Shown here in pieces: positions 643 through 17,515 of a stretch of DNA of 64,000 nucleotides; within the stretch, counting starts at the first letter, position 1; every line of letters starts with the position of its first letter. A program made the position numbers and the translations under genes. This stretch comes from an uncultured virus (IMG/VR IMGVR_UViG_3300023049_000387) (Duplodnaviria > Heunggongvirae > Uroviricota > Caudoviricetes). The notes under the pieces are model-generated. The model was given only the letters and a program-made list of their open reading frames with translations, was not told where the DNA came from and did no database searches. The stretch lies in the IMG/VR virus record IMGVR_UViG_3300023049_000387, positions 1 to 64,000 of that record, one strand, 5' to 3'.

Positions 643-717
643 ATGAGAACAATTAATAACATAGCAATAATAGCGATAGGCAAAGGGAAAACTCATTGGC
701 TGGGAATTGTTATGTAA
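643..717 (+). CDS. attenuator leader peptide 1 (24 aa, MRTINNIAIIAIGKGKTHWLGIVM)
   Basis: short ORF between a TAATATATA motif (618-626) and a terminator; ATA/GCN/GGN-rich, matching downstream tRNA-Ile(TAT), Ala, Gly. Confidence 0.75.
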   Translation: MRTINNIAIIAIGKGKTHWLGIVM

Positions 718-740
718 TTAATTTAATTATAAATTATCAT

Positions 741-774
741 AAACCCAGTCAGAAATGACTGGGTTTTTTATTTT
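741..774 (+). terminator. attenuator terminator upstream of tRNA cluster
   Basis: AAACCCAGTCA-GAAA-TGACTGGGTTT + T tract; 5' arm can alternatively pair with TGGCTGGG (697-704). Confidence 0.85.
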
Positions 775-783
775 ATTATAAAT

Positions 784-857
784 TGGTATGTAGCTTAGAT
801 GGTAAAAGCACATGGCTTATATCCATGAGATAGTGGGTTCGATACCCATCATACCAA
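784..857 (+). tRNA. tRNA-Ile(TAT)
   Basis: acceptor TGGTATG/CATACCA, anticodon arm CATGG-CTTATAT-CCATG. Confidence 0.88.
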
Positions 858-865
858 CAAAATAA

Positions 866-939
866 GCAGGTAACGCATAAGTGATGGTGCACTAGCCTTC
901 CAAGCTAGAATAGAATCGGTTTGATCCCGATTACCTGCT
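866..939 (+). tRNA. tRNA-Gly(TCC)
   Basis: acceptor GCAGGTA/TACCTGC, anticodon arm CTAGC-CTTCCAA-GCTAG. Confidence 0.85.
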
Positions 940-950
940 CGATATAAAAT

Positions 951-1024
951 GCAAATGTAGCTCAATTGGCTAGAGTGTCTGATTTCCATTCAGAAAGTTG
1001 TAGGTTCGAATCCTATCATTTGCT
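951..1024 (+). tRNA. tRNA-Gly(TCC)
   Basis: acceptor GCAAATG/CATTTGC, anticodon arm TCTGA-TTTCCAT-TCAGA. Confidence 0.88.
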
Positions 1025-1031
1025 CATTAAT

Positions 1032-1109
1032 GGGGGATTAGCTCAGTCTGGTCGTAAGCGATAGCTTTGCAAGCTGTGTCATACATCGGTTCAAATCCGA
1101 TATCCTCCA
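1032..1109 (+). tRNA. tRNA-Ala(TGC)
   Basis: acceptor GGGGGAT/ATCCTCC with G3:U70, anticodon loop TTTGCAA. Confidence 0.88.
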
Positions 1110-1401
1110 CAGGTTAATTAAAAAAAACAATAATTATAGAAGATTTGAGTGCGAGATAGATAGAGAGAGGAGTAATTACTAAATTTGCATCAGATGAATT
1201 GGAGAAGTTGTCTAAAAATCATCAGGCTAGAAAATATCAAAGCTTCACTATAGATAGGTGAGTTGTTGATATTGTGGACATGTCACCGATTTCTAAGCTA
1301 ACAAATTCAGTAGATGTGATAGTTTATGGTGGTGATTCATTAATGGAGATTTCTTAGAAACATATTAATAATATATATATAGAGAAAATGTACATATTAT
1401 T

Positions 1402-2157
1402 ATGATTATAAGATTTAGAAGTAGAGGAGAAAAAGTTAAGGATTTGCAAAACTTGTTAGGACTAAAACCTGATGGTATATTTGGTCCTAACACTTTGAAA
1501 GCTTTGAAGAATTTTCAAAGAGATAATGGATTAAGCGTAGATGGTATAGTTGGTCCTAATACTTGGTCTGTTTTAGTAAAAAACGATAAGAATAGAATAA
1601 GACCAATTTACGATGTTGATCTAAACGAAGAAGATTCTGTATCTGATCCAGAGTGTATGTTCTGTGTAGAAGATATTGAGGAAACACAACCTTTGTCCCC
1701 TAGTACAAGGGAACTTATAAACCTAATAGAATCTAGTGATATTACTAGGAATATAAAAAGGCTTGTTTTCCATTGTACTGCAACATCTCAAAAAGCTACT
1801 GTATCTGCCATTGTGAATTATTGGAAGAATACACTTGGGTGGCGTTCACCAGGTTATCATATAATTGTTAGGCCAGATGGAACTTGGAATCAACTACTAG
1901 ACTTTAACAGAGTCTCTAATGGTGTTCGTGGTATCAATTCTACTACTATAAATATATCATATATTGGTGGTGTTGACCGAAATGGTAGAGCATTGGATAA
2001 TAGAACTAAAAAGCAAAAGGATGTCTATGAAACCATTTATAGAGCTTTTAAGCATAAATTACCTAGAATAACATTTCATGGACATAATGAATTTTCATCA
2101 AAAGCATGTCCATCTTTTAATGTTAAAAATTGGATAAAGTCTTTAAGAGTAATTTAA
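1402..2157 (+). CDS. endolysin: peptidoglycan-binding domain + N-acetylmuramoyl-L-alanine amidase (Amidase_2)
   Basis: PG_binding_1 motifs (DGIFGPNT, DGIVGPNTW); T7-lysozyme-like HCTA, GYH, GHNEF..KACPSF. Confidence 0.9.
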   Translation: MIIRFRSRGEKVKDLQNLLGLKPDGIFGPNTLKALKNFQRDNGLSVDGIVGPNTWSVLVKNDKNRIRPIYDVDLNEEDSVSDPECMFCVEDIEETQPLSPSTRELINLIESSDITRNIKRLVFHCTATSQKATVSAIVNYWKNTLGWRSPGYHIIVRPDGTWNQLLDFNRVSNGVRGINSTTINISYIGGVDRNGRALDNRTKKQKDVYETIYRAFKHKLPRITFHGHNEFSSKACPSFNVKNWIKSLRVI

Positions 2158-2285
2158 TTAGTATATATTTGCATAGTAAGAATTCTAAAAGAAAGAAAAA
2201 TTATAATATTATTTTACTATATATCATGATGTTGCATGTTTTTAGATGAATTAACAACACTAATCACTTAATAATACAAATCTAT

Positions 2286-2714
2286 ATGACCACAATTCAA
2301 ACAAATAATATAATTAACTTTTATTTCAATATTAGCACTGAATGTGGTATTGATATATTACATCTATCACCAAGCTATCTTAGAGAAAAGTGGATACTCC
2401 ATATAGGAACTGATATTGAAAATAATAATATAACCAAAAGTGTTAAGTTGGATACTTGGACTAAAATATGGGGTGTTACTGATAAAAATACAACATCAAT
2501 ATATTATATAATTCTAGAATTAAATTCAGTTCCACTAAGGGAAGCTAATATAACGTCTGTAGTTAATAAAATTATTCCTTATATTGATGAAAATAAGATA
2601 AACAAAGAAGAATATAATGGTTTACACCCATCAATAAATAGTTGTAAGGATCAATGGATGATGAAGAAAGAAAACAAAAGATACTTAAATATTCAAATGT
2701 TATTGAATGACTGA
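2286..2714 (+). CDS. hypothetical protein
   Basis: ORF track. Confidence 0.6.
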   Translation: MTTIQTNNIINFYFNISTECGIDILHLSPSYLREKWILHIGTDIENNNITKSVKLDTWTKIWGVTDKNTTSIYYIILELNSVPLREANITSVVNKIIPYIDENKINKEEYNGLHPSINSCKDQWMMKKENKRYLNIQMLLND

Positions 2715-2737
2715 TATTTATATATAAGAGAAAAACA

Positions 2738-3193
2738 ATGAAATTAAGAAAGACTATAGCAACCACAATGAGAGGATATCTTAATGAGAATAATAGTAAT
2801 GAAAGTCATTTTTTATCTGAAAGTGAAAAATATGGCTCTTATGAAGGTATTATTCATTCTGATATAGAAAAAGTCAAGAATTAGTTCTCAAAACGAGGTA
2901 TTGACTACAATTCATATCTTAATCAAATTGAACTACCTGTAGCATTTTTAAACAATATAAATGTAGAATTAAAATATAGAGGAAAGGGATATGGTGATGA
3001 ACTATATTTTGATTTTGAACAGAATTGTTATTATTATAACACTAAATGCATAATATTAGAAAGTGATAGTGGCGAATCACAGAAGAAAGGTTTTAATTTG
3101 GACAATTGGTATGAAATCTTAGACTATGAGATAATTGGGGAAGAAAGTGGTAATTCAATTATGAAAAAAAAATTAATTAGTTCACAACGATGA
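2738..3193 (+). pseudogene. GNAT-family acetyltransferase interrupted by an in-frame TAG (2882-2884)
   Basis: frame continues through the TAG; acetyl-CoA motif NINVELKYRGKGYG and LDNWYE..Y. Confidence 0.65.
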
Positions 3194-3254
3194 TGGTGAT
3201 AATAGTGCTTTACTTAATTCTGATTATGAAATGATAATTATTTAAAAATAAATT

Positions 3255-3476
3255 ATGGGACTATACGATACAGTAAAAGTACCTTGCCCTTCATGTGGTG
3301 AGAAGAAAGATTTTCAAAGTAAGAGTGGTGATGGTTTTTTAGAAGTAGTTGATTTAGAAAACTGCCCATATGATATACTAGTAGGCGTAAACAGACATTC
3401 ACCCCATACTTGTAAGTGTGGAGAAATATTTAAAGTGGATTTAAATACTAGAAAAAGTGTAAAAACAGAAAAATAG
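3255..3476 (+). CDS. small Zn-ribbon phage protein
   Basis: MGLYDTV..CPSCG..FQSK..CKCG. Confidence 0.7.
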   Translation: MGLYDTVKVPCPSCGEKKDFQSKSGDGFLEVVDLENCPYDILVGVNRHSPHTCKCGEIFKVDLNTRKSVKTEK

Positions 3477-3733
3477 ACTATGATAATGTCCCAAATATCT
3501 ATTAAATAAGGGACTTTAAAAATTAGGTAATTTTATACATTGTTGTGCAGAGTAGGTTATTAATTTAATTATGAGATGAGTAGTATTAATTATATAAAAA
3601 ATACAACTTATTATCTGTTTGTAAGTATAAGTGTGTAAGTGCTACTTATGATAAACTTCTAATATCACAAACAATCAATTTTAATAAAAGCATATACTAG
3701 AAAATAGAAAATAAAAAATAATAAATTAAATAT

Positions 3734-4969
3734 ATGAATAACACATCAATTATAGATTCATTTACTGAGCTTAAGTCAGACAAAATGATTAATAAAATAG
3801 AGATAATGGAAATCCTAGACTCTGTTTTTAGATTTGAGTTTAGAAAAAAATATGATACAGATGAAAACTTTGATATAATTCTAAACCCAGATAACGGAGA
3901 TTTAGAAATATGGCAAAACAAAATCGTTGTACAAGATGGCGAGGTTGAAAACCACAATACTGAAATAGAAATTTCAGAAGTTCTTAAGGTGGAGTCAGAT
4001 TTTGAAATAGGGGAAGAATATCCACAAGAATTCAAAATATCAGAATTAGGAAGAAGATCTATATTAAGTTTAAGACAGAATCTAAAGGCTAGAATAAAAG
4101 ACTACGAAAATAAATCAACAATAGAGAAGTTTGAAGATATGATTGGATATATTTTCAATGCCGAAGTCCATCACATAAAAAGAAATATGGTTATATTACT
4201 AGATGATGAGGGTATTGAAATTTGTTTACCAAAAGATAATCAGATACCTGGTGAGTTTTACAGAAAAGGTGATACAATATCATTTGTGGTAGAAGAAGCT
4301 GAAATTAGAAACAATAAGCCATACATTATTGCATCAAGAACATCAAGTAAGTTTCTAGAAAGAATAATGGAACAAGAAATACCTGAAATATTCGATGGTC
4401 TAATAAATATAAAGAACATAGTTAGAGTACCTGGTATTAAAGCTAAGGTAGCAGTGGAAACATATGATGATAGAATTGATCCTGTTGGAACTTGTGTTGG
4501 TAGTAGAGGAAGTCGAATAATGGCAGTTACTAGAGAGCTAAATGGTGAGAGTATAGATATCATAAGCTACACAAATAATATGGATTTATATATAACTAGG
4601 TCGTTAAAACCAGCCGTTGTTAAATTTATAAAGGTAGAAGATGGTAAAGCTGACGTTCATTTAAATGGTGAAGATATTGGTAAGGCTATTGGTAAGAAAG
4701 GTTCTAATATAAGATTAACTAGCTTACTTACTGGTCTAGAAATAAATCTTATAAATGATGAGCAAGCTACAGAGGAAGATATAGATCTTATGGAATTTTC
4801 TGATGAAGTTGATTTATGGGTAATAAATGAATTTAAAAAAGCTGGTATAGATACTGCTAAATCATTACTATCTTATGGTTTTAGTGAACTTGTAAATATG
4901 ACAGATTTAGAGGATGTGACTATTGAGAAGATAATAAAAATAATCAAACAAGAATTTGTTGATAGTTAA
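3734..4969 (+). CDS. nusA: transcription termination/antitermination factor NusA
   Basis: NusA N-domain, S1, KH (RIDPVGTCVGSRGSRI; GKAIGKKGSNIRL), C-terminal HhH-like tail; 411 aa. Confidence 0.95.
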   Translation: MNNTSIIDSFTELKSDKMINKIEIMEILDSVFRFEFRKKYDTDENFDIILNPDNGDLEIWQNKIVVQDGEVENHNTEIEISEVLKVESDFEIGEEYPQEFKISELGRRSILSLRQNLKARIKDYENKSTIEKFEDMIGYIFNAEVHHIKRNMVILLDDEGIEICLPKDNQIPGEFYRKGDTISFVVEEAEIRNNKPYIIASRTSSKFLERIMEQEIPEIFDGLINIKNIVRVPGIKAKVAVETYDDRIDPVGTCVGSRGSRIMAVTRELNGESIDIISYTNNMDLYITRSLKPAVVKFIKVEDGKADVHLNGEDIGKAIGKKGSNIRLTSLLTGLEINLINDEQATEEDIDLMEFSDEVDLWVINEFKKAGIDTAKSLLSYGFSELVNMTDLEDVTIEKIIKIIKQEFVDS

Positions 4970-4978
4970 AACAAAATA

Positions 4979-5206
4979 ATGTCAAATAGAAACTATAAAA
5001 TAGATAAGGAAATCGAGGTAACACTTAAAGTTAAAGTAAAGATTAATTCTTGCAATGACTATAATAGGTTGAACGAATTACAAATAGAAAATAATGTATC
5101 TGATTTTAAAAATGATATTAAAGAACATCTGCTAGATAAGCTAAGAAATAGCTATCAAGAAGAAGTTACAATAGGTATTGATTTTTGGGATTATGAAGTA
5201 GATTAA
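4979..5206 (+). CDS. hypothetical protein
   Basis: ORF directly after nusA. Confidence 0.55.
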   Translation: MSNRNYKIDKEIEVTLKVKVKINSCNDYNRLNELQIENNVSDFKNDIKEHLLDKLRNSYQEEVTIGIDFWDYEVD

Positions 5207-5265
5207 TTAAATACCATAAAATACTTGTATAATATTTTTTATTTGTATATTTGTAAAAAAATAAT

Positions 5266-5535
5266 ATGAAAACTTTTAAGAAATCATTTATTATAATAGG
5301 ACTTGGCGTACTTAACATACTACATGCTAGCCTTCATATATTTCAATTTGTTCAATCTTTTATGCTTGTAAAGGCATCTATAGAACTACAAGACACACCA
5401 ACAAATCACAGTGGTTTATTTTCAGATTTACTACACAGTCCATATTTTACAATAGTTTGGGCATTAGTAGGCATCTTGACCTTATACATCGGTATCAAGG
5501 ATTTTATTCATCATAAAAAATGTAAAAATGGGTAG
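5266..5535 (+). CDS. small membrane protein (2 TM)
   Basis: two hydrophobic segments; TATATTTG upstream. Confidence 0.65.
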   Translation: MKTFKKSFIIIGLGVLNILHASLHIFQFVQSFMLVKASIELQDTPTNHSGLFSDLLHSPYFTIVWALVGILTLYIGIKDFIHHKKCKNG

Positions 5536-6433
5536 TTTTAATATAATATGTTCAATATCTAATACAGTCATAAGTGACGGCGATAGAGCAAGTATTCAGA
5601 TATTAGTCCCTGGTGGAAGTGAAAATTTCAATTCACATAAGAACATAATTGTATCAGAAAGTGGTACACAAGAGTTCTTCTCACCATTTGGGTTTCCAAT
5701 AAATGGTCGATATGATAGCTATGGAAGATTAAGACATATAGAAAATGACATAAATGTAGAAATGTTAGAAAAATTCTTTAACATAAATATATATGAATTA
5801 CTTAATCTAATACATTCTAGTAGTAGAACTTATGATGAAGAGGTTAAAAACACAGACATAATTGACAATTTGTTCATATCTTTTTTTAGAACAGAAGTCA
5901 TTGACTACATAGACAATGGAAGCCTAGATATAAATATTGACAACCCCGAAGAATATACTAGAGGTGCTTACATAAAAAGTATTTTAGATGGTATTGATGA
6001 TTATAACATAACAAACATATCAGAAAGAATATCATATATTGAAAGTATGGCAGAAGCTGATATTACAGAAGAAATTTCGAAAGAGTTTTTTGATTTAATA
6101 AGAAAACAAACTACAAGAAAAAAGACATATATTCAATCATTATGGCAATATAATATGTTTGAATTGCTACCAATTGATTTAATATTTAAAGACTATATAA
6201 TTAAACAATATAATCTTATTTCAACGATGACAAATGAATTGAAAGTATTATTGAGACCAAGCTTATATGGATCACAAGAAGGTGATGATTTATATAGATA
6301 CAAATTTAATAAAGAAATAAATAATCTAATCATTAATGATTTAGAATCAGAATCAGAATGGTTAGATGGTGAAGAAAAATCCATTATAAAGACACATAAT
6401 CGATCTGTCAAACTAGACAAATTGTATTCATAG
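5528..6433 (+). CDS. hypothetical phage protein
   Basis: 301-aa ORF, MGSFN..CSIS..GRYDSYG. Confidence 0.75.
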   Translation: MGSFNIICSISNTVISDGDRASIQILVPGGSENFNSHKNIIVSESGTQEFFSPFGFPINGRYDSYGRLRHIENDINVEMLEKFFNINIYELLNLIHSSSRTYDEEVKNTDIIDNLFISFFRTEVIDYIDNGSLDINIDNPEEYTRGAYIKSILDGIDDYNITNISERISYIESMAEADITEEISKEFFDLIRKQTTRKKTYIQSLWQYNMFELLPIDLIFKDYIIKQYNLISTMTNELKVLLRPSLYGSQEGDDLYRYKFNKEINNLIINDLESESEWLDGEEKSIIKTHNRSVKLDKLYS

Positions 6434-6697
6434 ATGAAATTTAATAAAGAAGATAGCCTTATTGGTATGCATTTTGTATACATGTCTGGATATGATAAGA
6501 ATCCTAAATTTGATAAGATAATAAAACTCGTTGAACCAGTAGGTTTAACTATACAAGAATTTATAAATAAAGCTTATTATCCTATAGATTCATATGTAAT
6601 TTCACAAAATGGCATAAGGTACGAAATGAGAGAGATAAAGCTAACTCCAATTAGTGAAATTAGAAAAAACAGATTAAAAAAATTAGGAATTAAATAG
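6434..6697 (+). CDS. hypothetical protein
   Basis: ORF abutting upstream gene. Confidence 0.6.
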   Translation: MKFNKEDSLIGMHFVYMSGYDKNPKFDKIIKLVEPVGLTIQEFINKAYYPIDSYVISQNGIRYEMREIKLTPISEIRKNRLKKLGIK

Positions 6698-6713
6698 ATA
6701 TATGTAATTAGTT

Positions 6714-7151
6714 ATGGCAGAACTTAAAAAGAAAAGAAAACGTTATAGATTAAATACATTTTTCTACATTGAAGTATATGATATAGCAGCACTTAGGAGT
6801 AAAAAACTAAATAAAGTAATGGGATTAGATAATAACATAAGACCCACCTATTTTAGTACACTAAGTAGAAATACTTCTATAAAGAATATATATCTTTCTA
6901 GCTTTTGGAAGAAGAAACAAAGTGCTATCAACCAAAAGGCTGCTATGAAAGAAATGTGTGATAAAAAGAATCTAACTATGGAAATAATCGAAATTAATAG
7001 ATTAGAGTTTATAAAATTAATACCGCTAAAAGTACCAGAGTGTTCAAAATGGGATATGGGATTATACATAATTAATATAGGCATTGTGCGTGATGAGAAA
7101 GCATATATGGAAACATTAAAGTGTAGGGAAATAGACAACATTAATGAATAA
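6714..7151 (+). CDS. hypothetical protein (possible paralog of 7144-7560)
   Basis: shared RY..F/YYIE.Y...LR..KL pattern. Confidence 0.6.
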   Translation: MAELKKKRKRYRLNTFFYIEVYDIAALRSKKLNKVMGLDNNIRPTYFSTLSRNTSIKNIYLSSFWKKKQSAINQKAAMKEMCDKKNLTMEIIEINRLEFIKLIPLKVPECSKWDMGLYIINIGIVRDEKAYMETLKCREIDNINE

Positions 7152-7560
7152 TCAAAATAAGACACGAATTAGATATCTATATTATATAGAAATGTACACA
7201 CTTGTACAATATAGAAGATTAAGGATTGCTCAAGTGTTGTCTCATCAAACAGAAACATTAGAGACCCTTTACTATAATGGACCTAGGGGATATATCGAAC
7301 CCCAAAATAATATATACTTTGCCTTATTTTTTAGAAGTTCAGAAAGTGCAAGGAAGTGTATAAACCTAGTTAGTGAGAATAACTACAAAAATTTTCAATT
7401 TATTATTAACAAAATTAGTTCGACTGACTTTGTTAATATAATACCAACTACAAAACCATTTAGGATAAACACAAGTCTTACATCAAGATACTACTATAGA
7501 AATAACCTAGGGCTAAGAAATGTTGAACTAACTCACTTAAAAGAATTAAATTTAAAATAA
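7144..7560 (+). CDS. hypothetical protein
   Basis: ORF overlapping upstream stop. Confidence 0.6.
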   Translation: MNNQNKTRIRYLYYIEMYTLVQYRRLRIAQVLSHQTETLETLYYNGPRGYIEPQNNIYFALFFRSSESARKCINLVSENNYKNFQFIINKISSTDFVNIIPTTKPFRINTSLTSRYYYRNNLGLRNVELTHLKELNLK

Positions 7561-7570
7561 TTAATACACT

Positions 7571-7945: not shown

Positions 7946-7946
7946 T

Positions 7947-8288: not shown

Positions 8289-8404
8289 TATAATTTATTT
8301 ATTTACTTATATATTAAATATTTACATAGTAAACAGATACAAATGTTAAAGTATCCTTTTTATATAAACTTTTCCATAGGTATGTATATATTAATAAAGA
8401 AACT

Positions 8405-10067: not shown

Positions 10068-10154
10068 ATATATTAAACAAATATAACCTTTTTATTTGAT
10101 ATATACAACAGGGGAGATATATACTTTTATATATATAATAAAATATAAAAAATC

Positions 10155-10313: not shown

Positions 10314-10423
10314 ATTTAATAAAATATTTCATAAATACTTTAATAATTCGAAATATATTCAGTATGTTTGTATCATATAATTTACTACAGATAATAGTAT
10401 TATGAACAAACAAAGAAGTTATT

Positions 10424-10660
10424 ATGAAAAATCTTAAAAAATGGTTTAGAAATTTATCAATTACTAACCTTGCTCACTACTACTGGCTAAAAATAAGAGA
10501 AGAATCAAAAGATAGACATGGTGAAAAATTATGTTATTGTGGACACACTAATAAATGTAGTTGTGATGACCCAGATAAACAAACTTTTAAAGATTCTGTA
10601 AAAAGAGGAACTATAATTATATTTGATAAAAAGAACGGTTGGAAAACTTCCAAAAAATAA
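10424..10660 (+). CDS. hypothetical protein (CxCGHxxxCxC)
   Basis: ORF track; TATGTTTG motif upstream. Confidence 0.55.
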   Translation: MKNLKKWFRNLSITNLAHYYWLKIREESKDRHGEKLCYCGHTNKCSCDDPDKQTFKDSVKRGTIIIFDKKNGWKTSKK

Positions 10661-12001
10661 ATGTAATAAATATAAAACTATGGAATCTAATAAAAAAGAA
10701 ACTAATGGGATATTGTCAGTAGTTCTAAATGTTTTCCTAGTAGCTACAGAAAATAGGCTAATAAGCTTCGCTATCAAAAATAAAGAATTAAGCCCTGAGC
10801 AGACTAGTTATATAGAGTCTGAATACGGCAAAATAGAATCTATCGAAGATGGTAGTAGTGGGTTCACTAAAACTGTTATATACATTTAATAAAATGAACT
10901 ATGTTAATTAGAAAAATGTATACCTTGTACATAAATACAACACTTAGAACTGCATACTTTGGTAATCTAAAGTTTGGATGTAGAATAGGTGGTGCAAAGT
11001 TTGGTAAAGTAATTGATTGTAATTTATCTGATTTGAAACACAACCTAAGAATACTAGCAGAAGAAAATTATTTAATTAATAAACGCACGTATTAAAATGA
11101 AAATAACAAAAGGAACATTCAAATATACTGGTATTAACGATATAGATATTGACTTAGTCACAGACAAGTGGAATCATTTATGGATGCTTGCTGAGTGGAA
11201 AGTAGACAATTCTTGGAAAATAGTCAAATATATTAGAAAAGACTCTCAAAATACCGAGATAAAGCTAACGATATCATGTGAACAAGCAACTGAACTTATT
11301 AAAAACCTTGGCTTAATTAATATTAATACTGGGTTTCAAAGTGGTTACTCTTGGAGGACTAAAAAGGATATGGTGTATTTAGAGAACTGGAGATTGGCAA
11401 GACATAAGAAATTACAGACCAAATTAATAACAAACAACTTTTAAATTATGAAAGATACATTTAGATACTTCATCAGAAAGAACTTCTCTGAGATTGGCGA
11501 AATAAGCAATGAGGATATTGATGAAATCGGAATTGAATTTCACAAGTACTTGGATAGCAAATTAAATGATGACCAAAAGGCTAAAATACTACCAAAAAGT
11601 GCGATTGATGTAATAATGAATAGCGACCACCCACTTAAAACAAACGGATTTGAGCCAGCATATATGCTACATTTTACACAATGGACAAAGGAACAAAGTG
11701 AATCGCAAGACTAGTTAAATGTTTTTATAAATTTTTTGGCTATTAGCTTCTATATTTACACAATAATAATAATAAAACAATGAATAAAGACAATAATTCT
11801 ATTATAGATACTAATGTACCTCTTTTTAAGTATATCGAGATTAAGGATTATGACAATGATAGTGTTGTTAAGCGACTAGATGTAAGCGATAAATCCGATA
11901 GGCGTATAGATACTATCGAAAGTGGGATTGATATAAACTTAAACCATGACCAATACTATACGTTTAGTCATGATAGTGAAGTTGAATTAGAACTCATATG
12001 A
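10623..12001 (+). other. run of small hypothetical early-type ORFs (10623/10680-10889, 10901-11095, 11097-11444, 11448-11714, 11780-12001)
   Basis: tightly packed co-oriented ORFs; no recognisable domains. Confidence 0.55.
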
Positions 12002-12030
12002 AAATAAATTTAAATCTTTTTAAAAAACAC

Positions 12031-12141
12031 TTGTGAGAAACAAATATTAGTTATATATTTGCACAGAACCTAAAATAATTTAAACTTTTAGTAAAAAAAA
12101 GAATATAAATAACCAAAGGAAGAAATAAAATTTAATATATA
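12031..12141 (+). promoter_or_regulatory. compound promoter region of tRNA cluster 3: TATATTTG (12054-12061), AAACTTT..TATAAA (12082-12109), TAATATATA (12133-12141)
   Basis: three recurring motif classes; homologous to 16740-16849. Confidence 0.6.
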
Positions 12142-12147
12142 ATAGTG

Positions 12148-12267
12148 ATGAAAAATTTAAACCTAAATACAAATAGAAACTTAACGCTCAATGTGGTGAA
12201 TATTATGTTATGTAATAGACCATCTAGGGGTTCTAGTGTATTTAATAAATTTCATCTTATGACATAG
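12148..12267 (+). CDS. attenuator leader peptide 2 (39 aa, MKNLNLNTNRNLTLNVVNIMLCNRPSRGSSVFNKFHLMT)
   Basis: codons 3-24 encode only N,L,T,R,V,I,M,C, the amino acids of the downstream array; contains antiterminator TCTAGGGGTT (12223-12232). Confidence 0.78.
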   Translation: MKNLNLNTNRNLTLNVVNIMLCNRPSRGSSVFNKFHLMT

Positions 12268-12290
12268 TGAAATAAAAAATACAAATAACT

Positions 12291-12330
12291 AAAACCCCTA
12301 GAAATGAAAATTCTAGGGGTTTTTTTGTTT
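12291..12330 (+). terminator. attenuator terminator upstream of tRNA cluster
   Basis: AAAACCCCTAGAA-loop-TTCTAGGGGTTTT + T tract ending just before the first tRNA. Confidence 0.88.
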
Positions 12331-12333
12331 TAT

Positions 12334-12418
12334 GCTAGTGTGGTGGAATGGTAGACACGAGGGATTCAAAATCCTTTAATCAGAAATGATTATATGAGTT
12401 CAAATCTCATCATTAGTA
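12334..12418 (+). tRNA. tRNA-Leu(CAA)
   Basis: anticodon arm AGGGA-TTCAAAA-TCCTT, long variable arm. Confidence 0.85.
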
Positions 12419-12430
12419 CATATATTACAA

Positions 12431-12504
12431 TCCTCGTTAGCTCAGTGGTCAGAAGCTCTCGTCTGTTAAACGAAAGGTCGGTGGTTCGAATCCACCACGA
12501 GGAG
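12431..12504 (+). tRNA. tRNA-Asn(GTT)
   Basis: acceptor TCCTCGT/ACGAGGA, anticodon loop CTGTTAA. Confidence 0.9.
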
Positions 12505-12512
12505 CAAATAAT

Positions 12513-12594
12513 CGGCATATACCAGCCCAAGCTGATACCTTGGAGAACTGTAGTTGGTAAGTTGAAAACGTAGGTTCGAGTCCTACTGTGCCGA
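12513..12594 (+). tRNA. non-canonical tRNA-Ile(GAT) lacking a D-arm at the normal position
   Basis: acceptor CGGCATA/TGTGCCG, anticodon arm CCAAG-CTGATAC-CTTGG only 7 nt after the acceptor, perfect T-arm. Confidence 0.7.
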
Positions 12595-12608
12595 CTTTTA
12601 TGACACTT

Positions 12609-12693
12609 GTCGGAGTGGTGGAATGGCAGACACGCTGGGTTTAAGCTCCAGTGGGCAGTGATGTCCGTGAGGGTTCGAGTCCCTTCTCCGATA
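12609..12693 (+). tRNA. tRNA-Leu(TAA)
   Basis: anticodon arm CTGGG-TTTAAGC-TCCAG, long variable arm. Confidence 0.9.
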
Positions 12694-12702
12694 CGAATAA
12701 AT

Positions 12703-12792
12703 GCCAGTGTGGTGAAATTGGATGAAACACGCTAGTCTTAGGAACTAGTACCCAAGAGGTAAACATTGTCGGTTCGAGTCCGACCACTGGTA
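12703..12792 (+). tRNA. tRNA-Leu(TAG)
   Basis: anticodon arm CTAGT-CTTAGGA-ACTAG, long variable arm. Confidence 0.9.
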
Positions 12793-12802
12793 CAAAATAA
12801 AT

Positions 12803-12883
12803 GCCTTAGTAGTCCCGATTGTCTTCTAAACAATTAAGGGTAATTGGAAGCTGAAAATATAGGTTCGAGTCCTATCTAGGGTA
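12803..12883 (+). tRNA. non-canonical tRNA-Arg(TCT) lacking a D-arm at the normal position
   Basis: acceptor GCCTTAG/CTAGGGT, anticodon arm ATTGT-CTTCTAA-ACAAT, perfect T-arm; same layout as 12513-12594. Confidence 0.7.
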
Positions 12884-12892
12884 CAAATAAAA

Positions 12893-12966
12893 AGTTCTGT
12901 AATTCAGGGGTTCAGAATGCTTCCCTTACAAGGAAGAAGTCGTTGGTTCGAATCCAACCAGAACTA
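12893..12966 (+). tRNA. tRNA-Val(TAC)
   Basis: anticodon arm CTTCC-CTTACAA-GGAAG. Confidence 0.9.
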
Positions 12967-12972
12967 CAAAAT

Positions 12973-13044
12973 GTACCTATGACCGAGTGATTTAGGTAGG
13001 TGGCTGCAACCCATCGTACGGGGGTTTGAATCCCTCTAGGTACT
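12973..13044 (+). tRNA. tRNA-Cys(GCA)
   Basis: anticodon loop CTGCAAC, U73 discriminator. Confidence 0.85.
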
Positions 13045-13051
13045 CTAATAT

Positions 13052-13124
13052 GCTGACATAGCTCAATTGGTAGAGCATTTGATTTGTAATCAAAAGGTTG
13101 TGGGTTCGAAGCCCTCTGTCAGCT
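13052..13124 (+). tRNA. tRNA-Thr(TGT)
   Basis: anticodon arm TTTGA-TTTGTAA-TCAAA. Confidence 0.9.
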
Positions 13125-13134
13125 CTGAAAAAAT

Positions 13135-13224
13135 GCACTAGTGGCGAAGTGGATGAAACGCATCAGACTTAAAATCTGATACCCTTTGAGGTGAACAACG
13201 TGGGTTCAAATCCCACCTGGTGTA
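13135..13224 (+). tRNA. tRNA-Leu(TAA)
   Basis: anticodon arm TCAGA-CTTAAAA-TCTGA, long variable arm. Confidence 0.88.
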
Positions 13225-13228
13225 CTAA

Positions 13229-13314
13229 ATCGCTATGAACAGATGTGGTAATTGTGCTTGGCTCATATCCAAGTTAGAGAAATCTTATTGTTGGTTCAAG
13301 TCCAACTAGCGGTA
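13229..13314 (+). tRNA. tRNA with CAT anticodon (Met/Ile2) and enlarged variable arm
   Basis: anticodon arm CTTGG-CTCATAT-CCAAG; extra arm TTAGAGAAATCTTATT. Confidence 0.8.
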
Positions 13315-13316
13315 CA

Positions 13317-13357
13317 AAAAAAGAGGGGATATAATTAATTATATCCCCTCTTTTTTA
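13317..13357. terminator. bidirectional intrinsic terminator
   Basis: AAAAAAGAGGGGATATAAT/ATTATATCCCCTCTTTTTT between convergent units. Confidence 0.85.
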
Positions 13358-13368
13358 TATTATTTGTT

Positions 13369-13800
13369 TTATTTATTTTTAAGACTTTCTATATCATCCC
13401 TTATCTCATCTATATCATCTAAAGATATATCATCCAAATCTTTACCAGCATCACCAGTATTATCTGTTACTACAGGAATAACATCTTCTATCCCTTTATC
13501 TATTTCCTTAGCAATGTAATCATCCCCTGCAATACTCTCTCTTTCTATTTGTAAACAGAACTGTGCTAATACTGCTAAATCATCATTTTTCTGTGCTAAA
13601 TCGAATACTTTGCTATTAAGTTCATATTTTGACATACCTCTAAATTTCTTTCTAGTATAGTAGTCATAGAAATCTTGCTCTTCTCTAGACATAACATTAG
13701 ATGGTTTTCTATCAATACCAAATATCTCTGTCTTTTTAGCTTTTGCAGTTACTGCTTCGCTCACTTTTTTATTGTTAAAGTCTTTATATTTTTTTATCAT
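13369..13800 (-). CDS. hypothetical protein (putative virion-packaged)
   Basis: MIKKYKDFN N-terminus; TAATATATA upstream. Confidence 0.65.
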   Translation of the reverse strand: MIKKYKDFNNKKVSEAVTAKAKKTEIFGIDRKPSNVMSREEQDFYDYYTRKKFRGMSKYELNSKVFDLAQKNDDLAVLAQFCLQIERESIAGDDYIAKEIDKGIEDVIPVVTDNTGDAGKDLDDISLDDIDEIRDDIESLKNK

Positions 13801-13818
13801 ACTCTTATATATTAATTT

Positions 13819-14454
13819 TTATTTACCATTTATTTCTTCAAACTCTTTTTCTAAATAAAGATAAATGTATTTTTTATACCTTTTCTTAATATCATCACTC
13901 ACCGCCCTTGATATTCCCATCCATAGACCAATACTTTTTAATTTAGAAAATGCATCTTTTATATCATTTGGATTTCTTTCCATTATTAGGTCTGTTATAG
14001 ATTGTGAAAAAGCCATTACCTCATCTTTATTCGAAAAATAAGCCTTTTGATCTGAAATGTTTCCTAAAAATTCAAAATTTAAATCAGCTGGTCGTCTCAA
14101 ACCTTGTTTTAAATGTATATTTTCATGCTTTAATACGTGGATAGCAAAACTGATATCATTACTCTCAAGATATCTTACATTATTAGCAAGAACCAATCTA
14201 GGCTTTTTAGTAACTGGGTTTAATAAACCAAATACTTTCATACCATTTGGTGGTGCATCTTCCCTCATTTTATCAGTTGGTAATTCATCATAGAATGTTC
14301 TGTAATAAACAACCTCTATATCATTTTTTGCACCAATTCTTTGTAATTCATCAACACTAATACTCCACTCAGCCTCGACCTCTTTTATAAACTTTTCTAA
14401 ATTATCAGACTTCCAATCTATTATTGCCTCATTAAACTTTTTTAAATGTTTCAT
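13819..14454 (-). CDS. HExxH zincin-like protein with MKHLKKFNE N-terminus
   Basis: HENIH motif, downstream E (DEVMAF). Confidence 0.6.
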   Translation of the reverse strand: MKHLKKFNEAIIDWKSDNLEKFIKEVEAEWSISVDELQRIGAKNDIEVVYYRTFYDELPTDKMREDAPPNGMKVFGLLNPVTKKPRLVLANNVRYLESNDISFAIHVLKHENIHLKQGLRRPADLNFEFLGNISDQKAYFSNKDEVMAFSQSITDLIMERNPNDIKDAFSKLKSIGLWMGISRAVSDDIKKRYKKYIYLYLEKEFEEINGK

Positions 14455-14470
14455 TATTATTCTTTTTTTT

Positions 14471-16696
14471 TTAGAAATTTTCGTTTAATGGAAAATTCTT
14501 TAGATAAATTTTATCATTGGCATTATCACCAAATATTAAATATTTAGAGTCATCACCCAATATATATTGATTCAATACTTTATTATGAGCTTCCTCTGGG
14601 ATAACATCACTAAAAAGTCTTATGTTAGTAACCTTCATATCAGATGCTAATATCTTAGGATTTTTATCAATATTATACTGAATAGGTTCTATGTCTTGTT
14701 TATTATAATACTCTTTTCTCAAAATTGTACTATTAAGCATTTTTGCATCATCTTCTATATCTACATTTCTCTTATATATATAATTTTCAATATACCTTTG
14801 ACGTTGGTTTAAATTTAGCACATAACAATACCAAGTATCTTCCTCTAATGCATCACTTTCCCCATCATTTAACTCAAATATATATTCTTCTTCATTCATA
14901 GTAACTGTAATGCTATCATTCTTTAGACTAGACTTCCATCCTTTATTAATCCCATTGTCATAAACGTCCATAAATTTATAAACTTCATCTTTTATGTAGT
15001 TATTTATACTAAACCAAACTTGTAATGATATGTTGTCAGATACATCAAGTATAGAATTAAAGTTCTTGTATTGAACTGCCAAACCATTATATTCTACTGT
15101 TGATAAATCATAACAATATTTAGATATTATGGTTGTTGAGTTTTCAATAAGTTCTTTATCAACTTCAGAAAAATACTCAAGTCTAATAGGATCTCTAGAT
15201 AAAGGTTGTTGTTCCTTCTTATTAGCAATTGACTTCTTATCTTGTTCTATCTCCTTTCCAAATAGTTCATCAATAGTAGTATTCTTTGTTAACTCACTAA
15301 TGCTATTAGAAATTTCTGGAATATCTGTCTGAACATTTGATTTTTGAGAATATTTTTTGAGAATAAGTTTATAATAAACAGCCGCATTATTAAAATTTCT
15401 AAACTGTTGAGCATGGTCAACTTGATACATTCTATTAACTTGACAAAAATGTATAAAATCTTCTTTAGAAGGTCTTCTCTGGACACCAAACATTTCCTTA
15501 AATTGTTTCTTTGTTATATGTGCTTCCATTGAATCAAATAATCCTAAATCGAATATGTTCATCTTAATCTGTGAGTCTGGAAAATTATTACCATCAATAG
15601 ATATTTTTAAATCTCCCTCACACACAACATTATATAATTGATATTCATTAAGTGTGTGGTCTTGACCATTGGCATCTGGATCAGTTGCATAATAAGTTAC
15701 TTTATGTCCTAGTACTTGTTCAGAGTCTGTACTTAATTTTTCATATAGTTGAGTAGCTTGTGTTTGTTCATAAGGATTATATAACTGAGCCTTGTCTGTA
15801 TCTGTCATTGGTTTAAATGCATCATTCTCACCTTCACAGTTGTTACCTGTTGTGTTTAAATTATCATTCATTATATACTTACCTTCACTGTTTATATAGC
15901 CTATCTGGTTGGATTTACAACATTCTCTTATCCCAAATAGATTACTCTTTTTATAATCTTCCTTAACATTTTGAAAATCTCCTACTAAATTTATGTCTTG
16001 AAACCTAGACACTGATCCCGATTTGTTATCAATAAGATATTCTATTTCAAAGAAACGTATAGGGTTTATCCTTTTGGTTGTTATATTTTCTTTAGTCAAT
16101 GGTTCCCATTCAGTCCAAGTTCTAGAGTTATCTTGTGAGAATCTATACTTTATACTTATGTCATCTAAACTAGTTATATTAATGATTTGTATATCTTCTA
16201 ATTTAAAAACTTTATATATGAAAGGTGCTTTTACTATCTTAGAATCACCTGGCTCTATATAAAATGCTTGTTCACCATTGAATTGTATTTCTTGTCTATC
16301 TATAATACCTTCTAATTTATATTCTAGTATTCTTATACTACCTATTTCAGAAGTTCCCTTTCTCACCCATTTAATTTCAAGGTACATACTATCTAGTGTA
16401 TCAACAACTGGGAAGTTGGTTATATTAATATTTAAGTCTAACCACTCAGACCATGTGTTACCATCTCTGGAAACTCTATAATATTGTAAGAGAAATCTAT
16501 CTTGTTTAAGACCTAAACTATCGTATGTAAATCTTTTGAACTTTTCCACATTATCTAACTTATCAAAAGATAATATGTATTCATCATTGATAGAATTTAG
16601 ATAAGGAGTTTCATCTTCAACACCAGTTGCCATCACGTCATATTCATCTGATATAGTTATTATTCCTTTCTCAAAATCTGAGTTTATATTTACCAT
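14471..16696 (-). CDS. virion structural protein with T4 gp14-like neck domain
   Basis: central QVLGHKVTYY..PSKEDFIHF..MYQV..YYKLILKKY segment recalls gp14-like head completion proteins; late motif upstream. Confidence 0.55.
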   Translation of the reverse strand: MVNINSDFEKGIITISDEYDVMATGVEDETPYLNSINDEYILSFDKLDNVEKFKRFTYDSLGLKQDRFLLQYYRVSRDGNTWSEWLDLNINITNFPVVDTLDSMYLEIKWVRKGTSEIGSIRILEYKLEGIIDRQEIQFNGEQAFYIEPGDSKIVKAPFIYKVFKLEDIQIINITSLDDISIKYRFSQDNSRTWTEWEPLTKENITTKRINPIRFFEIEYLIDNKSGSVSRFQDINLVGDFQNVKEDYKKSNLFGIRECCKSNQIGYINSEGKYIMNDNLNTTGNNCEGENDAFKPMTDTDKAQLYNPYEQTQATQLYEKLSTDSEQVLGHKVTYYATDPDANGQDHTLNEYQLYNVVCEGDLKISIDGNNFPDSQIKMNIFDLGLFDSMEAHITKKQFKEMFGVQRRPSKEDFIHFCQVNRMYQVDHAQQFRNFNNAAVYYKLILKKYSQKSNVQTDIPEISNSISELTKNTTIDELFGKEIEQDKKSIANKKEQQPLSRDPIRLEYFSEVDKELIENSTTIISKYCYDLSTVEYNGLAVQYKNFNSILDVSDNISLQVWFSINNYIKDEVYKFMDVYDNGINKGWKSSLKNDSITVTMNEEEYIFELNDGESDALEEDTWYCYVLNLNQRQRYIENYIYKRNVDIEDDAKMLNSTILRKEYYNKQDIEPIQYNIDKNPKILASDMKVTNIRLFSDVIPEEAHNKVLNQYILGDDSKYLIFGDNANDKIYLKNFPLNENF

Positions 16697-16739
16697 AACT
16701 CTATATATTAAAAAAGATTATTTTAATTTAAAAAAAACC

Positions 16740-16849
16740 TTGTATAAACCATTTATTTATATTATATTTGCATAGAAATAATATAATTCTAAACTTTTAT
16801 AAAAAAAAGTCTATAAATAACCATAGAGAGAAATAAAAGTTAATATATA
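16740..16849 (+). promoter_or_regulatory. compound promoter region of tRNA cluster 4
   Basis: TATATTTG 16763-16770, AAACTTT..TATAAA 16791-16817, TAATATATA 16841-16849. Confidence 0.6.
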
Positions 16850-16856
16850 AAACATA

Positions 16857-16961
16857 ATGAAAAATTTAAACTTAAACATAGTAGTTAACCCTCAACCCCA
16901 AGTTGATATCGATCAGGATTCTGATACGAAAGGTGCTAACTATGTTTTAAATTTAAGTTGA
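16857..16961 (+). CDS. attenuator leader peptide 3 (34 aa, MKNLNLNIVVNPQPQVDIDQDSDTKGANYVLNLS)
   Basis: PQPQVDIDQDSD matches downstream Asp/Gln/Pro tRNAs; antiterminator GCTAACTATGTTTT (16935-16948). Confidence 0.78.
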   Translation: MKNLNLNIVVNPQPQVDIDQDSDTKGANYVLNLS

Positions 16962-16977
16962 TATTTAAATAATAAAA

Positions 16978-17023
16978 ACAAAAACTCGGTTAGTCTTTTA
17001 GATTAACCGAGTTTTTTTTGTTT
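16978..17023 (+). terminator. attenuator terminator upstream of tRNA cluster
   Basis: AAAACTCGGTTAGTCT-TTT-AGATTAACCGAGTTTT + T tract. Confidence 0.88.
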
Positions 17024-17027
17024 ATAT

Positions 17028-17100
17028 AGCTCTGAGGTCAAATGGTTAAGATGTACGTCTGTCTCACGTAACGGAGTGGGTTCGATTCCCATCAGAGCTG
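17028..17100 (+). tRNA. tRNA-Asp(GTC)
   Basis: anticodon arm TACGT-CTGTCTC-ACGTA, G73. Confidence 0.88.
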
Positions 17101-17112
17101 CTAATATTAAAT

Positions 17113-17186
17113 TGCCCCATAGTGTAATTGGCTAACACATCTGGTTTTGGTCCAGAAGATTGCAGGTTCGAACCCTGCTGGGGTAA
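17113..17186 (+). tRNA. tRNA-Gln(TTG)
   Basis: anticodon arm TCTGG-TTTTGGT-CCAGA. Confidence 0.9.
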
Positions 17187-17195
17187 CAAGTTAAT

Positions 17196-17269
17196 CGAGA
17201 AGTGACTAAGGTTATAAGCACGGGTGCATTGGAGGCATCAGTTAGCAGGTTCGATTCCTGTCTTCTCGA
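17196..17269 (+). tRNA. tRNA-Pro(TGG)
   Basis: acceptor CGAGAAG/CTTCTCG, anticodon loop ATTGGAG; atypical D-arm. Confidence 0.75.
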
Positions 17270-17281
17270 CAAATTTTTAAT

Positions 17282-17353
17282 AGTCCATTAGTGTAAAGGT
17301 TATCATTTCCGACTGTCTCTCGGAAGATAGGGGTTCGAATCCCCTATGGACTG
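17282..17353 (+). tRNA. tRNA-Asp(GTC)
   Basis: anticodon arm TCCGA-CTGTCTC-TCGGA. Confidence 0.9.
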
Positions 17354-17359
17354 CAAAAA

Positions 17360-17433
17360 TGCTCTATAGTGTAATTGGTTAACACGTCTGGCTTTGGTCC
17401 AGGAGATTGTAGGTTCGAACCCTACTGGGGCAA
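17360..17433 (+). tRNA. tRNA-Gln(TTG)
   Basis: anticodon arm TCTGG-CTTTGGT-CCAGG. Confidence 0.9.
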
Positions 17434-17442
17434 CAAGTATAG

Positions 17443-17515
17443 CGAGGGTGTAGTGTAATCTGGTAACACACGATGTTTGGGACATCGAATTGCTGTTCGA
17501 ATCGGACATCTTCGA
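17443..17515 (+). tRNA. tRNA-Pro(TGG), apparent 8-bp acceptor and short T-stem
   Basis: CGAGGGTG/CATCTTCG, anticodon arm CGATG-TTTGGGA-CATCG. Confidence 0.78.

Follow-up and report, generated by a model that had tools for sequence, protein, structure and literature searches.

We analysed the transfer RNA (tRNA) genes in the first 64 kb (64,000 nucleotides (nt); hereafter the window) of a 78.8-kb viral contig, IMG/VR record IMGVR_UViG_3300023049_000387, an AT-rich sequence of ~29% G+C. These genes lie in arrays, and each array appears to be gated by a short open reading frame (ORF), the leader, followed by an intrinsic terminator, an arrangement that resembles a leader-peptide attenuator. ARAGORN called 18 tRNAs in the window, making up three arrays and the tail of a fourth at 1–124, where the contig start falls inside a tRNA gene:

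1–124, + strand: tail of the preceding, putatively gated array, with the 3′ part of tRNA-Tyr(GTA) at 1–41 and tRNA-Glu(TTC) at 51–124 (ARAGORN for Glu)
784–1110, + strand: array 1, Ile(TAT) 784–858, tRNA-like element 866–939, Gly(TCC) 951–1025, Ala(TGC) 1032–1110 (ARAGORN, Rfam)
12334–13315, + strand: array 2, Leu-CAA, Asn, an Ile-GAT-like element (12513–12594), Leu-TAA, Leu-TAG, an Arg-TCT-like element (12803–12883), Val, Cys, Thr, Leu-TAA, Met (ARAGORN, Rfam)
17028–17516, + strand: array 3, Asp, Gln, tRNA-like element 17196–17269, Asp, Gln, Pro (ARAGORN, Rfam)

The leader and terminator of the Tyr/Glu array lie just beyond the window edge. They are seen in G003 (L010), a contig near-identical to the window phage that supplies this upstream unit (leader MNTFTNIEYYYEESERKRSASLLMSIM at L010 9573–9656, terminator at 9678–9705).

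A sequence-only reading of this stretch had proposed that the three arrays with visible upstream DNA share one layout. We confirmed this layout before all three: an upstream motif, a short ATG ORF, a segment complementary to the terminator, the terminator, and then the first tRNA. The leader ORFs are:

643–717, + strand: leader ORF 1, 24 codons, MRTINNIAIIAIGKGKTHWLGIVM, with four ATA, two Ala and three Gly codons
12148–12267, + strand: leader ORF 2, 39 codons, MKNLNLNTNRNLTLNVVNIMLCNRPSRGSSVFNKFHLMT
16857–16961, + strand: leader ORF 3, 34 codons, MKNLNLNIVVNPQPQVDIDQDSDTKGANYVLNLS, of which codons 12–23 read PQPQVDIDQDSD

Each leader had also been said to be loaded with the amino acids of its own array. 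Taking the amino-acid composition of the contig's 60 ORFs with 150 or more amino acids (aa) as the background for binomial probabilities, we find that the claim holds, with 11/23 cognate residues in leader 1 (P 6.6e-4), 24/38 in leader 2 (P 1.9e-5) and 9/33 in leader 3 (P 1.6e-2). Among the three leaders, Gln and Asp occur in leader 3 only, as the same reading had noticed, and the Pro/Gln/Asp block of this leader is kept in five homologues. In leader 2, 22 of the 23 residues at codons 2–24 are Leu, Asn, Thr, Arg, Val, Ile, Met or Cys, and 26/38 codons of the ORF are readable by the anticodons of array 2.

The residues just named include Arg and Ile, which the sequence-only reading had assigned to array 2. 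Both are present as aberrant tRNA-like elements that have a truncated D arm and are not standard calls, and this part of the claim depends on those two elements. The Arg-like element is one of the three extra elements matched by Rfam (866–939, 44 bits; 12803–12883, 39.1 bits; 17196–17269, 30.4 bits), and its anticodon loop CUUCUAA gives UCU/Arg. The element at 12513–12594 is a sub-threshold Rfam match (27.3 bits vs a cut-off of 29) with the loop CUGAUAC, giving GAU/Ile. Both have normal acceptor, anticodon and T arms, a D arm of only 3–4 nt, and a 21–23-nt insertion behind the anticodon stem with a D-loop-like GTAGTTGGTAAG or GGGTAATTGGAAG inside. Leader 2 holds ATT, AGA and AGG, the codons of these two elements, which suggests that the aberrant elements are used. 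With Ile and Arg counted, its cognate residues rise to 28/38 (P 8.5e-5).

To place the phage, we used a 741-aa protein encoded at 14471–16696 on the − strand. Among uncultured huge phages, it shows 61.5% and 55.6% identity to proteins of LR745206.1 (635 kb) and LR756502.1 (642 kb), respectively; its counterparts in LR756501.1/LR756503.1 (735 kb) and in LR756504.1 (636 kb) are 32–33% identical. A part of PMC7162821 assigns genomes of >634 kb to a 'Mahaphage' clade, for which replication is predicted in Bacteroidetes. With the same protein as anchor, IMG/VR yielded two identical copies and three loci at 54% identity; no tRNAs were found inside 10 kb at these three loci.

We then extended the comparison of leaders and arrays to six genomes. 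In the related records the tRNAs were mapped whole with RF00005, and all tRNA-bearing regions were examined. A unit was defined by ARAGORN tRNAs with a hairpin and a T run ≤200 nt upstream of a tRNA; the leader was the longest ATG ORF with its stop 15–50 nt before the hairpin, and the array comprised every tRNA that came before the next terminator or before a gap >600 nt. Duplicate calls of one terminator were merged and the G003 copies of window units were left out, while weak units were retained, such as MQIII (0/4 cognate) and a 38-codon ORF (1/37). This gave 31 units, three from the window, one from G003, and 7, 6, 3, 7 and 4 from the five GenBank genomes. Examples from the other genomes are:

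MTTSFQQQQQQQINRTD, before four tRNA-Gln
MRTILIIKKKKRDAIPIKIE, before three tRNA-Lys
MKTIAMIIRMRIIRPKMLG, before Arg, Ile, Met
MNNILHINLLNSLCLLGIKLIG, before five tRNA-Leu
MKTINNTSKSSSRSSSMSEIRLYS, before Arg, Ser
MKAISVHIIHIWEHLLEEVNINIM, before His, Glu, Val, Trp

A survey of this kind, leader codons against shuffled arrays in related huge phages, had been suggested as a check, and the concordance is far beyond chance. The 31 leaders hold 288 cognate residues out of 852, compared with 120.9 ± 19.9 when the arrays are re-dealt within each genome; none of 100,000 shuffles reached this value, the maximum being 226. Counting only codons readable by the array anticodons under strict wobble gave 246 vs 97.1 ± 18.1 (0/100,000). 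In 6/6 genomes, none of the other n! possible pairings scores as high as the true one (1/24, 1/5040, 1/720, 1/6, 1/24, 1/5040). Synonymous choice follows the same direction, since 232/276 cognate codons are readable by the unit's own anticodons vs 211.2 expected from phage usage (z-score (z) 4.2). This excess comes from Ile, Arg, Ala, Val and Ser, with Ile at 20/26 vs 14.3 and Arg at 11/12 vs 5.5. Among homologous leaders the composition is conserved and the order of the peptide drifts.

The concordance is confined to the leader frame. In the same stretches, there is none in frame +1 (107 vs 104.3), in frame +2 (80 vs 95.9) or in the reverse complement (104 vs 100.2). Base composition or tRNA-derived sequence was considered as a source of the concordance and rejected, the other frames and the reverse strand being free of signal.

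Could the short ORFs be incidental, or encode functional small peptides, with the hairpins serving as leaky terminators or insulators of arrays that are constitutively read through? Short ORFs are indeed common in this AT-rich DNA (201 of ≥20 aa in 18.5 kb), and the leader peptides have similar N termini (MKNLN.., MKTIN..), as members of one peptide family might. However, this explanation gives no account of the frame-specific concordance, of the synonymous bias, or of a composition that is kept while the order drifts. Neither does it account for the placement of the ORFs, because an ATG ORF of 10–50 codons ending 15–50 nt upstream is present at 29/30 tRNA-proximal terminators vs 20/93 others at the same loci, nor for the recurrence of the design in distant phages with unrelated leaders (below). 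We regard it as very improbable.

Next to the leaders lie the terminators and the strands that could disrupt them:

742–773, + strand: intrinsic terminator 1, 10-bp stem 742–765 and T tract, hairpin −15.7 kcal/mol
12293–12331, + strand: intrinsic terminator 2, stem 12293–12321 and T tract
16983–17023, + strand: intrinsic terminator 3, 14-bp stem 16983–17013 and T tract, two compensatory pairs vs homologues
13317–13356: strong two-way terminator, closing array 2
696–705, + strand: antiterminator strand 1, TTGGCTGGGA, pairing with the terminator 5′ arm 742–751
12222–12233, + strand: antiterminator strand 2, ATCTAGGGGTTC, pairing with the terminator 5′ arm 12293–12305
16934–16947, + strand: antiterminator strand 3, TGCTAACTATGTTT

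An independent scan of 1–18000 returned strong + strand terminators only at 741–766, 12291–12323, 16980–17016 and 13317–13356, and the window terminator hairpins range from −15.6 to −17.8 kcal/mol. The terminators had been said to end within about 10 nt of the first tRNA. Between the end of the main T run and this tRNA lie 15, 7 and 8 nt, or 10, 2 and 4 nt when the second, short T run is counted, in line with that statement, and the former distances leave no room for a separate promoter.

The strand that would compete with each terminator was evaluated by duplex energy. Antiterminator 1 has −13.6 kcal/mol (z −4.9; 0/200 shuffles as good), and its TGGCTG is kept in four homologues. For antiterminator 2 the value is −16.7 kcal/mol (z −6.3), and leader 2 ranks best among 30 foreign leaders on its own arm; compared with the LR745206.1 homologue, the strand and both terminator arms change together (CTAGGGG vs CTGAGGG). 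Over all units, the duplex of leader and 5′ arm beats shuffled leaders in 30/31 (mean z −2.4; 14/31 below −2). The duplex energies on the own terminators sum to −305 vs −204.8 ± 10.5 kcal/mol when leaders and terminators are re-paired (0/100,000). In the array-1 and array-3 leader families, the antiterminator and the arm are conserved and do not co-vary; covariation within a family is thus limited, and re-pairing between families is the informative comparison for the match of antiterminator and terminator. In all units the antiterminator strand is placed towards the 3′ end of the ORF or at the stop codon, and the density of cognate codons is 0.39–0.44 upstream of the strand and 0.17 within or after it.

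We also modelled the folds in silico, computing the minimum free energy (MFE) structure of the nascent RNA while a 29-nt ribosome footprint was moved along the ORF. With the A site on codons 1–14 of leader 1, 1–24 of leader 2 or 3–17 of leader 3, 8–12 bases of the terminator 5′ arm pair upstream. Once the ribosome covers the antiterminator strand, the model predicts that no base of this arm pairs upstream. Two further hairpins would sequester the antiterminator strand:

651–723, + strand: predicted anti-antiterminator hairpin (1:2) of leader 1 (MFE), whose 5′ half consists of the regulatory codons and which encloses the antiterminator strand
16863–16959, + strand: conserved long hairpin (1:2) of leader 3, in which region 1 (AGTTAACC) directly precedes the Pro/Gln/Asp codons

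The hairpin of the array-3 family is kept in five sequences, eight pairs being altered on both sides yet kept. In this family, region 1 (AGTTAAC), region 2 (GGCTAACT) and region 3 (AGTTAGTC) appear, as judged from the sequence, to take the form of a classical three-way competition. Because leaders 1 and 3 are predicted to have the long 1:2 hairpin, with regulatory codons as its 5′ half, their untranslated RNA should terminate in the model. Unlike these two, leader 2 without a ribosome has the antiterminator as the MFE structure of its nascent RNA.

The sequences upstream of the leaders provide candidate promoters:

601–626, + strand: shared upstream motif GAGGGAGAG..TTAATATATA, with TTAATATATA at 617–626, 16 nt before the leader 1 ATG
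12132–12141, + strand: TTAATATATA motif, 6 nt before the leader 2 ATG
16840–16849, + strand: TTAATATATA motif, 7 nt before the leader 3 ATG
12031–12061, + strand: promoter-like boxes TTG-N20-TATATTTG before leader 2
16740–16770, + strand: promoter-like boxes TTG-N20-TATATTTG before leader 3

A promoter motif had been claimed for each cluster. A shared motif, TTAATATATA, is found 6–16 nt 5′ of each window leader ATG and also before many phage ORFs; in the window the TTG-N20-TATATTTG boxes stand before leaders 2 and 3 only. These boxes also precede the homologues of leaders 2 and 3 in relatives, and they resemble what we take to be the Bacteroidetes −33/−7 promoter consensus and are presumably of Bacteroidota type. 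No such box was found directly upstream of leader 1, which is preceded by two small ORFs. The TTAATATATA motif, written as T[TA]AATATATA, occurs 25 times in the 78.8 kb; in 19/25 occurrences an ATG follows within 0–25 nt, that of a large gene in some cases, and examples in the window are at 16711(−), 13815(−), 10076(−) and 50265(+). The pattern probably marks phage promoters or start sites.

An initiator-type tRNA-Met (acceptor CGCGGGG..) helps in reading the motif. It begins ~20 nt after a GGGAGA..TTTTTAATATATA motif and has neither a leader ORF nor a terminator:

L010 9480–9553 (G003): leaderless initiator-type tRNA-Met
L008 29871–29943 (LR745206.1): leaderless initiator-type tRNA-Met

In the window phage, the Glu/Tyr leader comes directly after this gene. 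A motif without a leader is what would be expected here, since stalling in elongation cannot sense an initiator tRNA. As the motif precedes a leaderless tRNA, we infer that TTAATATATA is a promoter element and not a translation signal.

Taken together, the anatomy, the codon–anticodon concordance, the mutually exclusive pairings and the conservation make it highly probable, as far as sequence can tell, that these units carry out ribosome-mediated transcription attenuation, the slow decoding of the codons that an array serves being what turns that array on. This stalling mechanism is what the sequence-only reading had proposed. All of its sequence-level predictions that we tested held in the window and in independent relatives, namely codon match, frame, placement of the ORF before the terminator, match of the antiterminator to its own terminator, antiterminator position and folds. 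The rest of the mechanism, from leader translation and stall-dependent read-through to processing of the resulting RNA and the physiological trigger, is inferred from them.

The mechanism would run as follows. Transcription from the shared upstream promoter region would enter a short ORF written in the codons of the downstream tRNAs. When decoding is fast, the ribosome would pass over or occupy the antiterminator strand, or the strand would re-pair with region 1; the terminator hairpin would then form, and RNA polymerase would halt a few bases before the first tRNA. When any cognate aminoacyl-tRNA is scarce, the ribosome would stall early or midway in the ORF and hold region 1 open. The antiterminator strand would pair with the terminator 5′ arm, polymerase would read into the whole array, and RNase P with other tRNA-processing enzymes would excise the tRNAs. 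Each array would thus be an OR-gated negative-feedback loop on its own tRNA supply, with the new tRNAs shutting the array again.

Several observations weigh against this mechanism or narrow its reach. Leader 3 opens with Asn, Leu and Val codons, which array 2 serves, so cross-talk with array 2 is predicted. Its antiterminator is weak by duplex energy (−8.5, z −0.5; rank 14 of 30 foreign leaders), although strand and partner are kept across five homologues despite this. The Glu/Tyr leader (z +0.8) and one Gln-only leader fit their own terminators no better than foreign leaders do. In the fold model, a ribosome at the leader 2 stop codon leaves the antiterminator unmasked, and termination would therefore need kinetic ordering or 1:2 re-pairing. 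In the regions examined, only 139/248 ARAGORN tRNAs stand behind a called leader and terminator; coverage is 17/19 in the window phage and 50/60 in the closest relative, and 20/59, 19/38 and 7/26 in the three more distant huge phages. Several tRNA runs simply follow ordinary genes. In LR756502.1, an ORF of ~67 codons (~21346–21548; L002 ~21290–21556) lies between the array-2 terminator and the tRNAs, and the switch there would control a protein gene plus tRNAs. Units that the three closest genomes share by homology do not count as independent samples, although each test within a genome does stand by itself. Finally, the sequencing runs with the locus comprise 23 of DNA (lake and salt-lake metagenomes) and 0 of RNA.

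Some of these points would also fit a different output, in which decoding is sensed and acts on the processing or stability of the tRNA precursor, or on access of Rho to it, and not on intrinsic termination. The unmasked antiterminator at the leader 2 stop and the poor antiterminator scores in 3/31 units speak for it, and tRNAs need excision from a precursor anyway. The position of the G+C-rich stem and T tract, 2–15 nt before the first tRNA in 3/3 window units and recurring at 30 tRNA-proximal sites overall, argues against it, as does the upstream strand, which complements specifically the 5′ arm of that stem (0/100,000 re-pairings). We consider this route quite unlikely.

If attenuation is at work, host tRNAs might be lost to defence nucleases or become diluted after host shut-off, and either event, or plain demand, could be the trigger. 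The same attenuator might, then, serve another signal, a shortage of amino acids or of charging, or the codon demand of late translation, and act as a housekeeping governor and not as a counter-defence. A stalled ribosome cannot distinguish a missing from an uncharged tRNA, as in trp and his attenuation. Leader 1 would chiefly sense ATA, the commonest Ile codon of the phage (962/1598 Ile codons in long ORFs), which fits demand for tRNA-Ile(UAU), and every amino-acid class is served by some array, not just the known nuclease targets. On the other hand, more tRNA gives no relief of an amino-acid shortage, and the tight codon–anticodon matching fits the amount of tRNA better; candidate RNA-repair genes beside array 3 (cREC_REC 18102–18482, AAA_33 19533–20051) hint at RNA damage. 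We give the housekeeping signal a substantial chance, somewhat short of even.

Units of this design are not confined to the six genomes. A scan of IMG/VR with the terminator pattern returned at least 118 stretches, 80 of which were examined. Ten of these had a tRNA ≤250 nt downstream, and 10/10 have a cognate-rich leader, one being a duplicate; in one example, MKTQTTYQTQYQPKGGKP.. stands before Pro, Lys, Lys, Pro, Gly, Gln, Tyr and Thr. The nine loci hold 121 cognate residues vs 80.4 ± 11.6 (a value attained in 59/100,000 shuffles). Cellulophaga phage phi4:1 (NC_021788.1), which is in culture, has three units at ~87.0–90.0 kb. Their cognate residues number 11/21, 22/26 and 14/31, with an uncertain start codon in the middle unit, and the true pairing scores 47 vs 13–28 for the other five pairings. 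The leaders of these distant phages are unrelated in sequence.

Two annotated coding sequences of phi4:1 are of note here (L168 5990–6109 and 8118–8219). The small gp075 overlaps a predicted leader in the same frame, whereas gp076 is located within the third array and probably does not serve as a leader. In the relatives, mini-leaders also occur inside arrays, MTTTQQIQQQQINQTD and MTTSFQQQQQQQINRTD standing before Gln-only sub-arrays (L001 37639–37751, L002 42938–43046). The 8-codon MKTKLKYKR and a hairpin precede four tRNA-Lys (L008 8138–8200), a site missed by the terminator rule.

Other phages gave negative results. The tRNAs of Prevotella phage Lak-B2 are widely spaced, and the one terminator with an ORF, before tRNA-Trp, has no clear match. 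Bacteroides phage crAss001 has 0 terminators of the array type in its 6.2-kb tRNA region. The tRNA regions of these two lack the design, which is therefore not general to Bacteroidota phages. We found nothing convincing of the design at the four tRNAs of Tenacibaculum phage pT24, and no tRNA match in PTm1 and MaF61.

The window also encodes proteins that may bear on transcription termination, on uncharged-tRNA signalling or on RNA repair, as well as Cas-like and TnpB proteins:

3734–4969, + strand: NusA homologue, 411 aa, between arrays 1 and 2 (NusA_N 5e-23, KH_5 4e-24, KH_NusA_C 4e-8)
9516–10067, − strand: RelA/SpoT-type HD_4 protein, 183 aa (1.7e-16)
18102–18482, + strand: protein with a cREC_REC 'cyclic-phosphate processing' receiver domain, right after array 3 (1.8e-18)
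19533–20051, + strand: AAA_33/KTI12-like kinase (2.5e-15)
37788–38321, − strand: 2′-5′ RNA ligase/LigT/Acb1-like protein (1.9e-9)
27412–29661, − strand: Cas3-like HD-helicase
31315–32019, − strand: Cas6
44426–45154, + strand: OrfB_IS605/Cas12f-like TnpB

By its domain, the HD_4 protein may be a (p)ppGpp hydrolase, relevant to uncharged-tRNA signalling, and the cREC_REC, AAA_33 and LigT/Acb1-like proteins may have RNA-repair or anti-signalling functions. NusA_N was found in 1/5 related records, LR756504.1 (304698–305066), ~3.5 kb upstream of a leader-gated His/Phe array; a phage NusA as a required partner of the attenuators was rejected on this distribution.

Leader-peptide attenuation of enzyme genes has been known for ~50 years. 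In the trp, his, leu and pheA leaders and the enterobacterial thr and ilvGMEDA/ilvBN leaders, an ORF with the sensed codons is combined with exclusive 1:2, 2:3 and 3:4 hairpins and an intrinsic terminator. The phage units are alike in their codon-rich ORF, their predicted competing hairpins and the predicted selection of the fold by ribosome position, and they are multivalent as thr and ilv are. They differ in that tRNAs are regulated, with up to 8–9 amino acids per leader, and in that the antiterminator lies inside the ORF and several parallel, phage-borne units are present per genome. To our knowledge, all described leader-peptide attenuators regulate genes of amino-acid biosynthesis, transport or synthetases, and the tRNAs regulated here set the phage units apart from those families. 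A further parallel is pheST with its pheM leader, where slow decoding raises decoding capacity via phenylalanyl-tRNA synthetase; there, too, a component of the decoding apparatus is attenuated, although the product is a synthetase, for one amino acid, and the operon is chromosomal.

In function the phage units recall T-boxes, which bind uncharged tRNA via a specifier codon without an ORF and are typical of Firmicutes, not of Bacteroidota; we know of none that controls tRNA genes. Like T-boxes, the phage units would switch between terminator and antiterminator on the status of a specific tRNA and serve translation-related genes. The T-box senses the tRNA directly, whereas the phage units have an ORF and no T-box match: an Rfam cmscan of 1–18000 at E ≤1 gave no leader or T-box family, only tRNAs and chance matches far below the gathering score. 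Bacteroid-trp RNA may be a Trp-codon leader-peptide attenuator, in which case attenuation of this kind is present in the phylum of the presumed host. It differs from the phage units in regulating trp biosynthesis genes by a single amino acid, and it has no match in 1–18000. A part of PMC2864571 presents it (RF01692) as a candidate cis-regulatory leader in Bacteroidetes.

The sequence-only reading knew of no translational attenuation of tRNA genes. Our search of openly accessible main texts and of Rfam agrees, having given no leader-peptide attenuation of tRNA genes. The main text of a genome-wide attenuator survey (PMC2965389) is without mention of tRNA genes, 'Bacteroid-' or 'phage', and in the main text of PMC7162821 the terms 'attenuat-', 'leader' and 'terminator' do not occur.

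Phage tRNAs have been linked to defence. The tRNAs of T5 reportedly replace host tRNAs lost to PARIS or retron effectors, and the parallel is that a phage supplies tRNAs when those of the host fail; the T5 case concerns tRNA function, not gene control. We know of no sensing element described for defence-rescuing phage tRNAs. A more far-reaching picture, which we offer tentatively and hold to be rather doubtful as a whole, is that parallel array-specific sensors gauge the speed of decoding at each codon and re-issue whichever tRNA set has failed, countering anticodon nucleases or the phage's own host shut-off. The leader would then be a 'table of contents' that certifies odd tRNAs, the NusA homologue might tune pausing and termination, and the system would be the first ribosome-mediated attenuation of non-coding RNA genes.

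Textbook control of tRNA genes is exerted at the promoter by growth rate. The tRNA genes described here appear to be governed by translation itself, per amino-acid group. If this is true, leader-peptide attenuation extends to non-coding RNA genes, and tRNA supply would be both limiting and actively monitored during infection by large phages. It would also give an annotation rule, in which leader codons predict the tRNAs that an array should supply, aberrant ones included, and a natural modular sensor of how available each tRNA is, which could be redeployed as a reporter. Phage phi4:1 on Cellulophaga baltica is a cultured carrier of the design in which it is testable now, and the units would offer a direct handle on phage tRNAs as an answer to host tRNA-cleaving defences.

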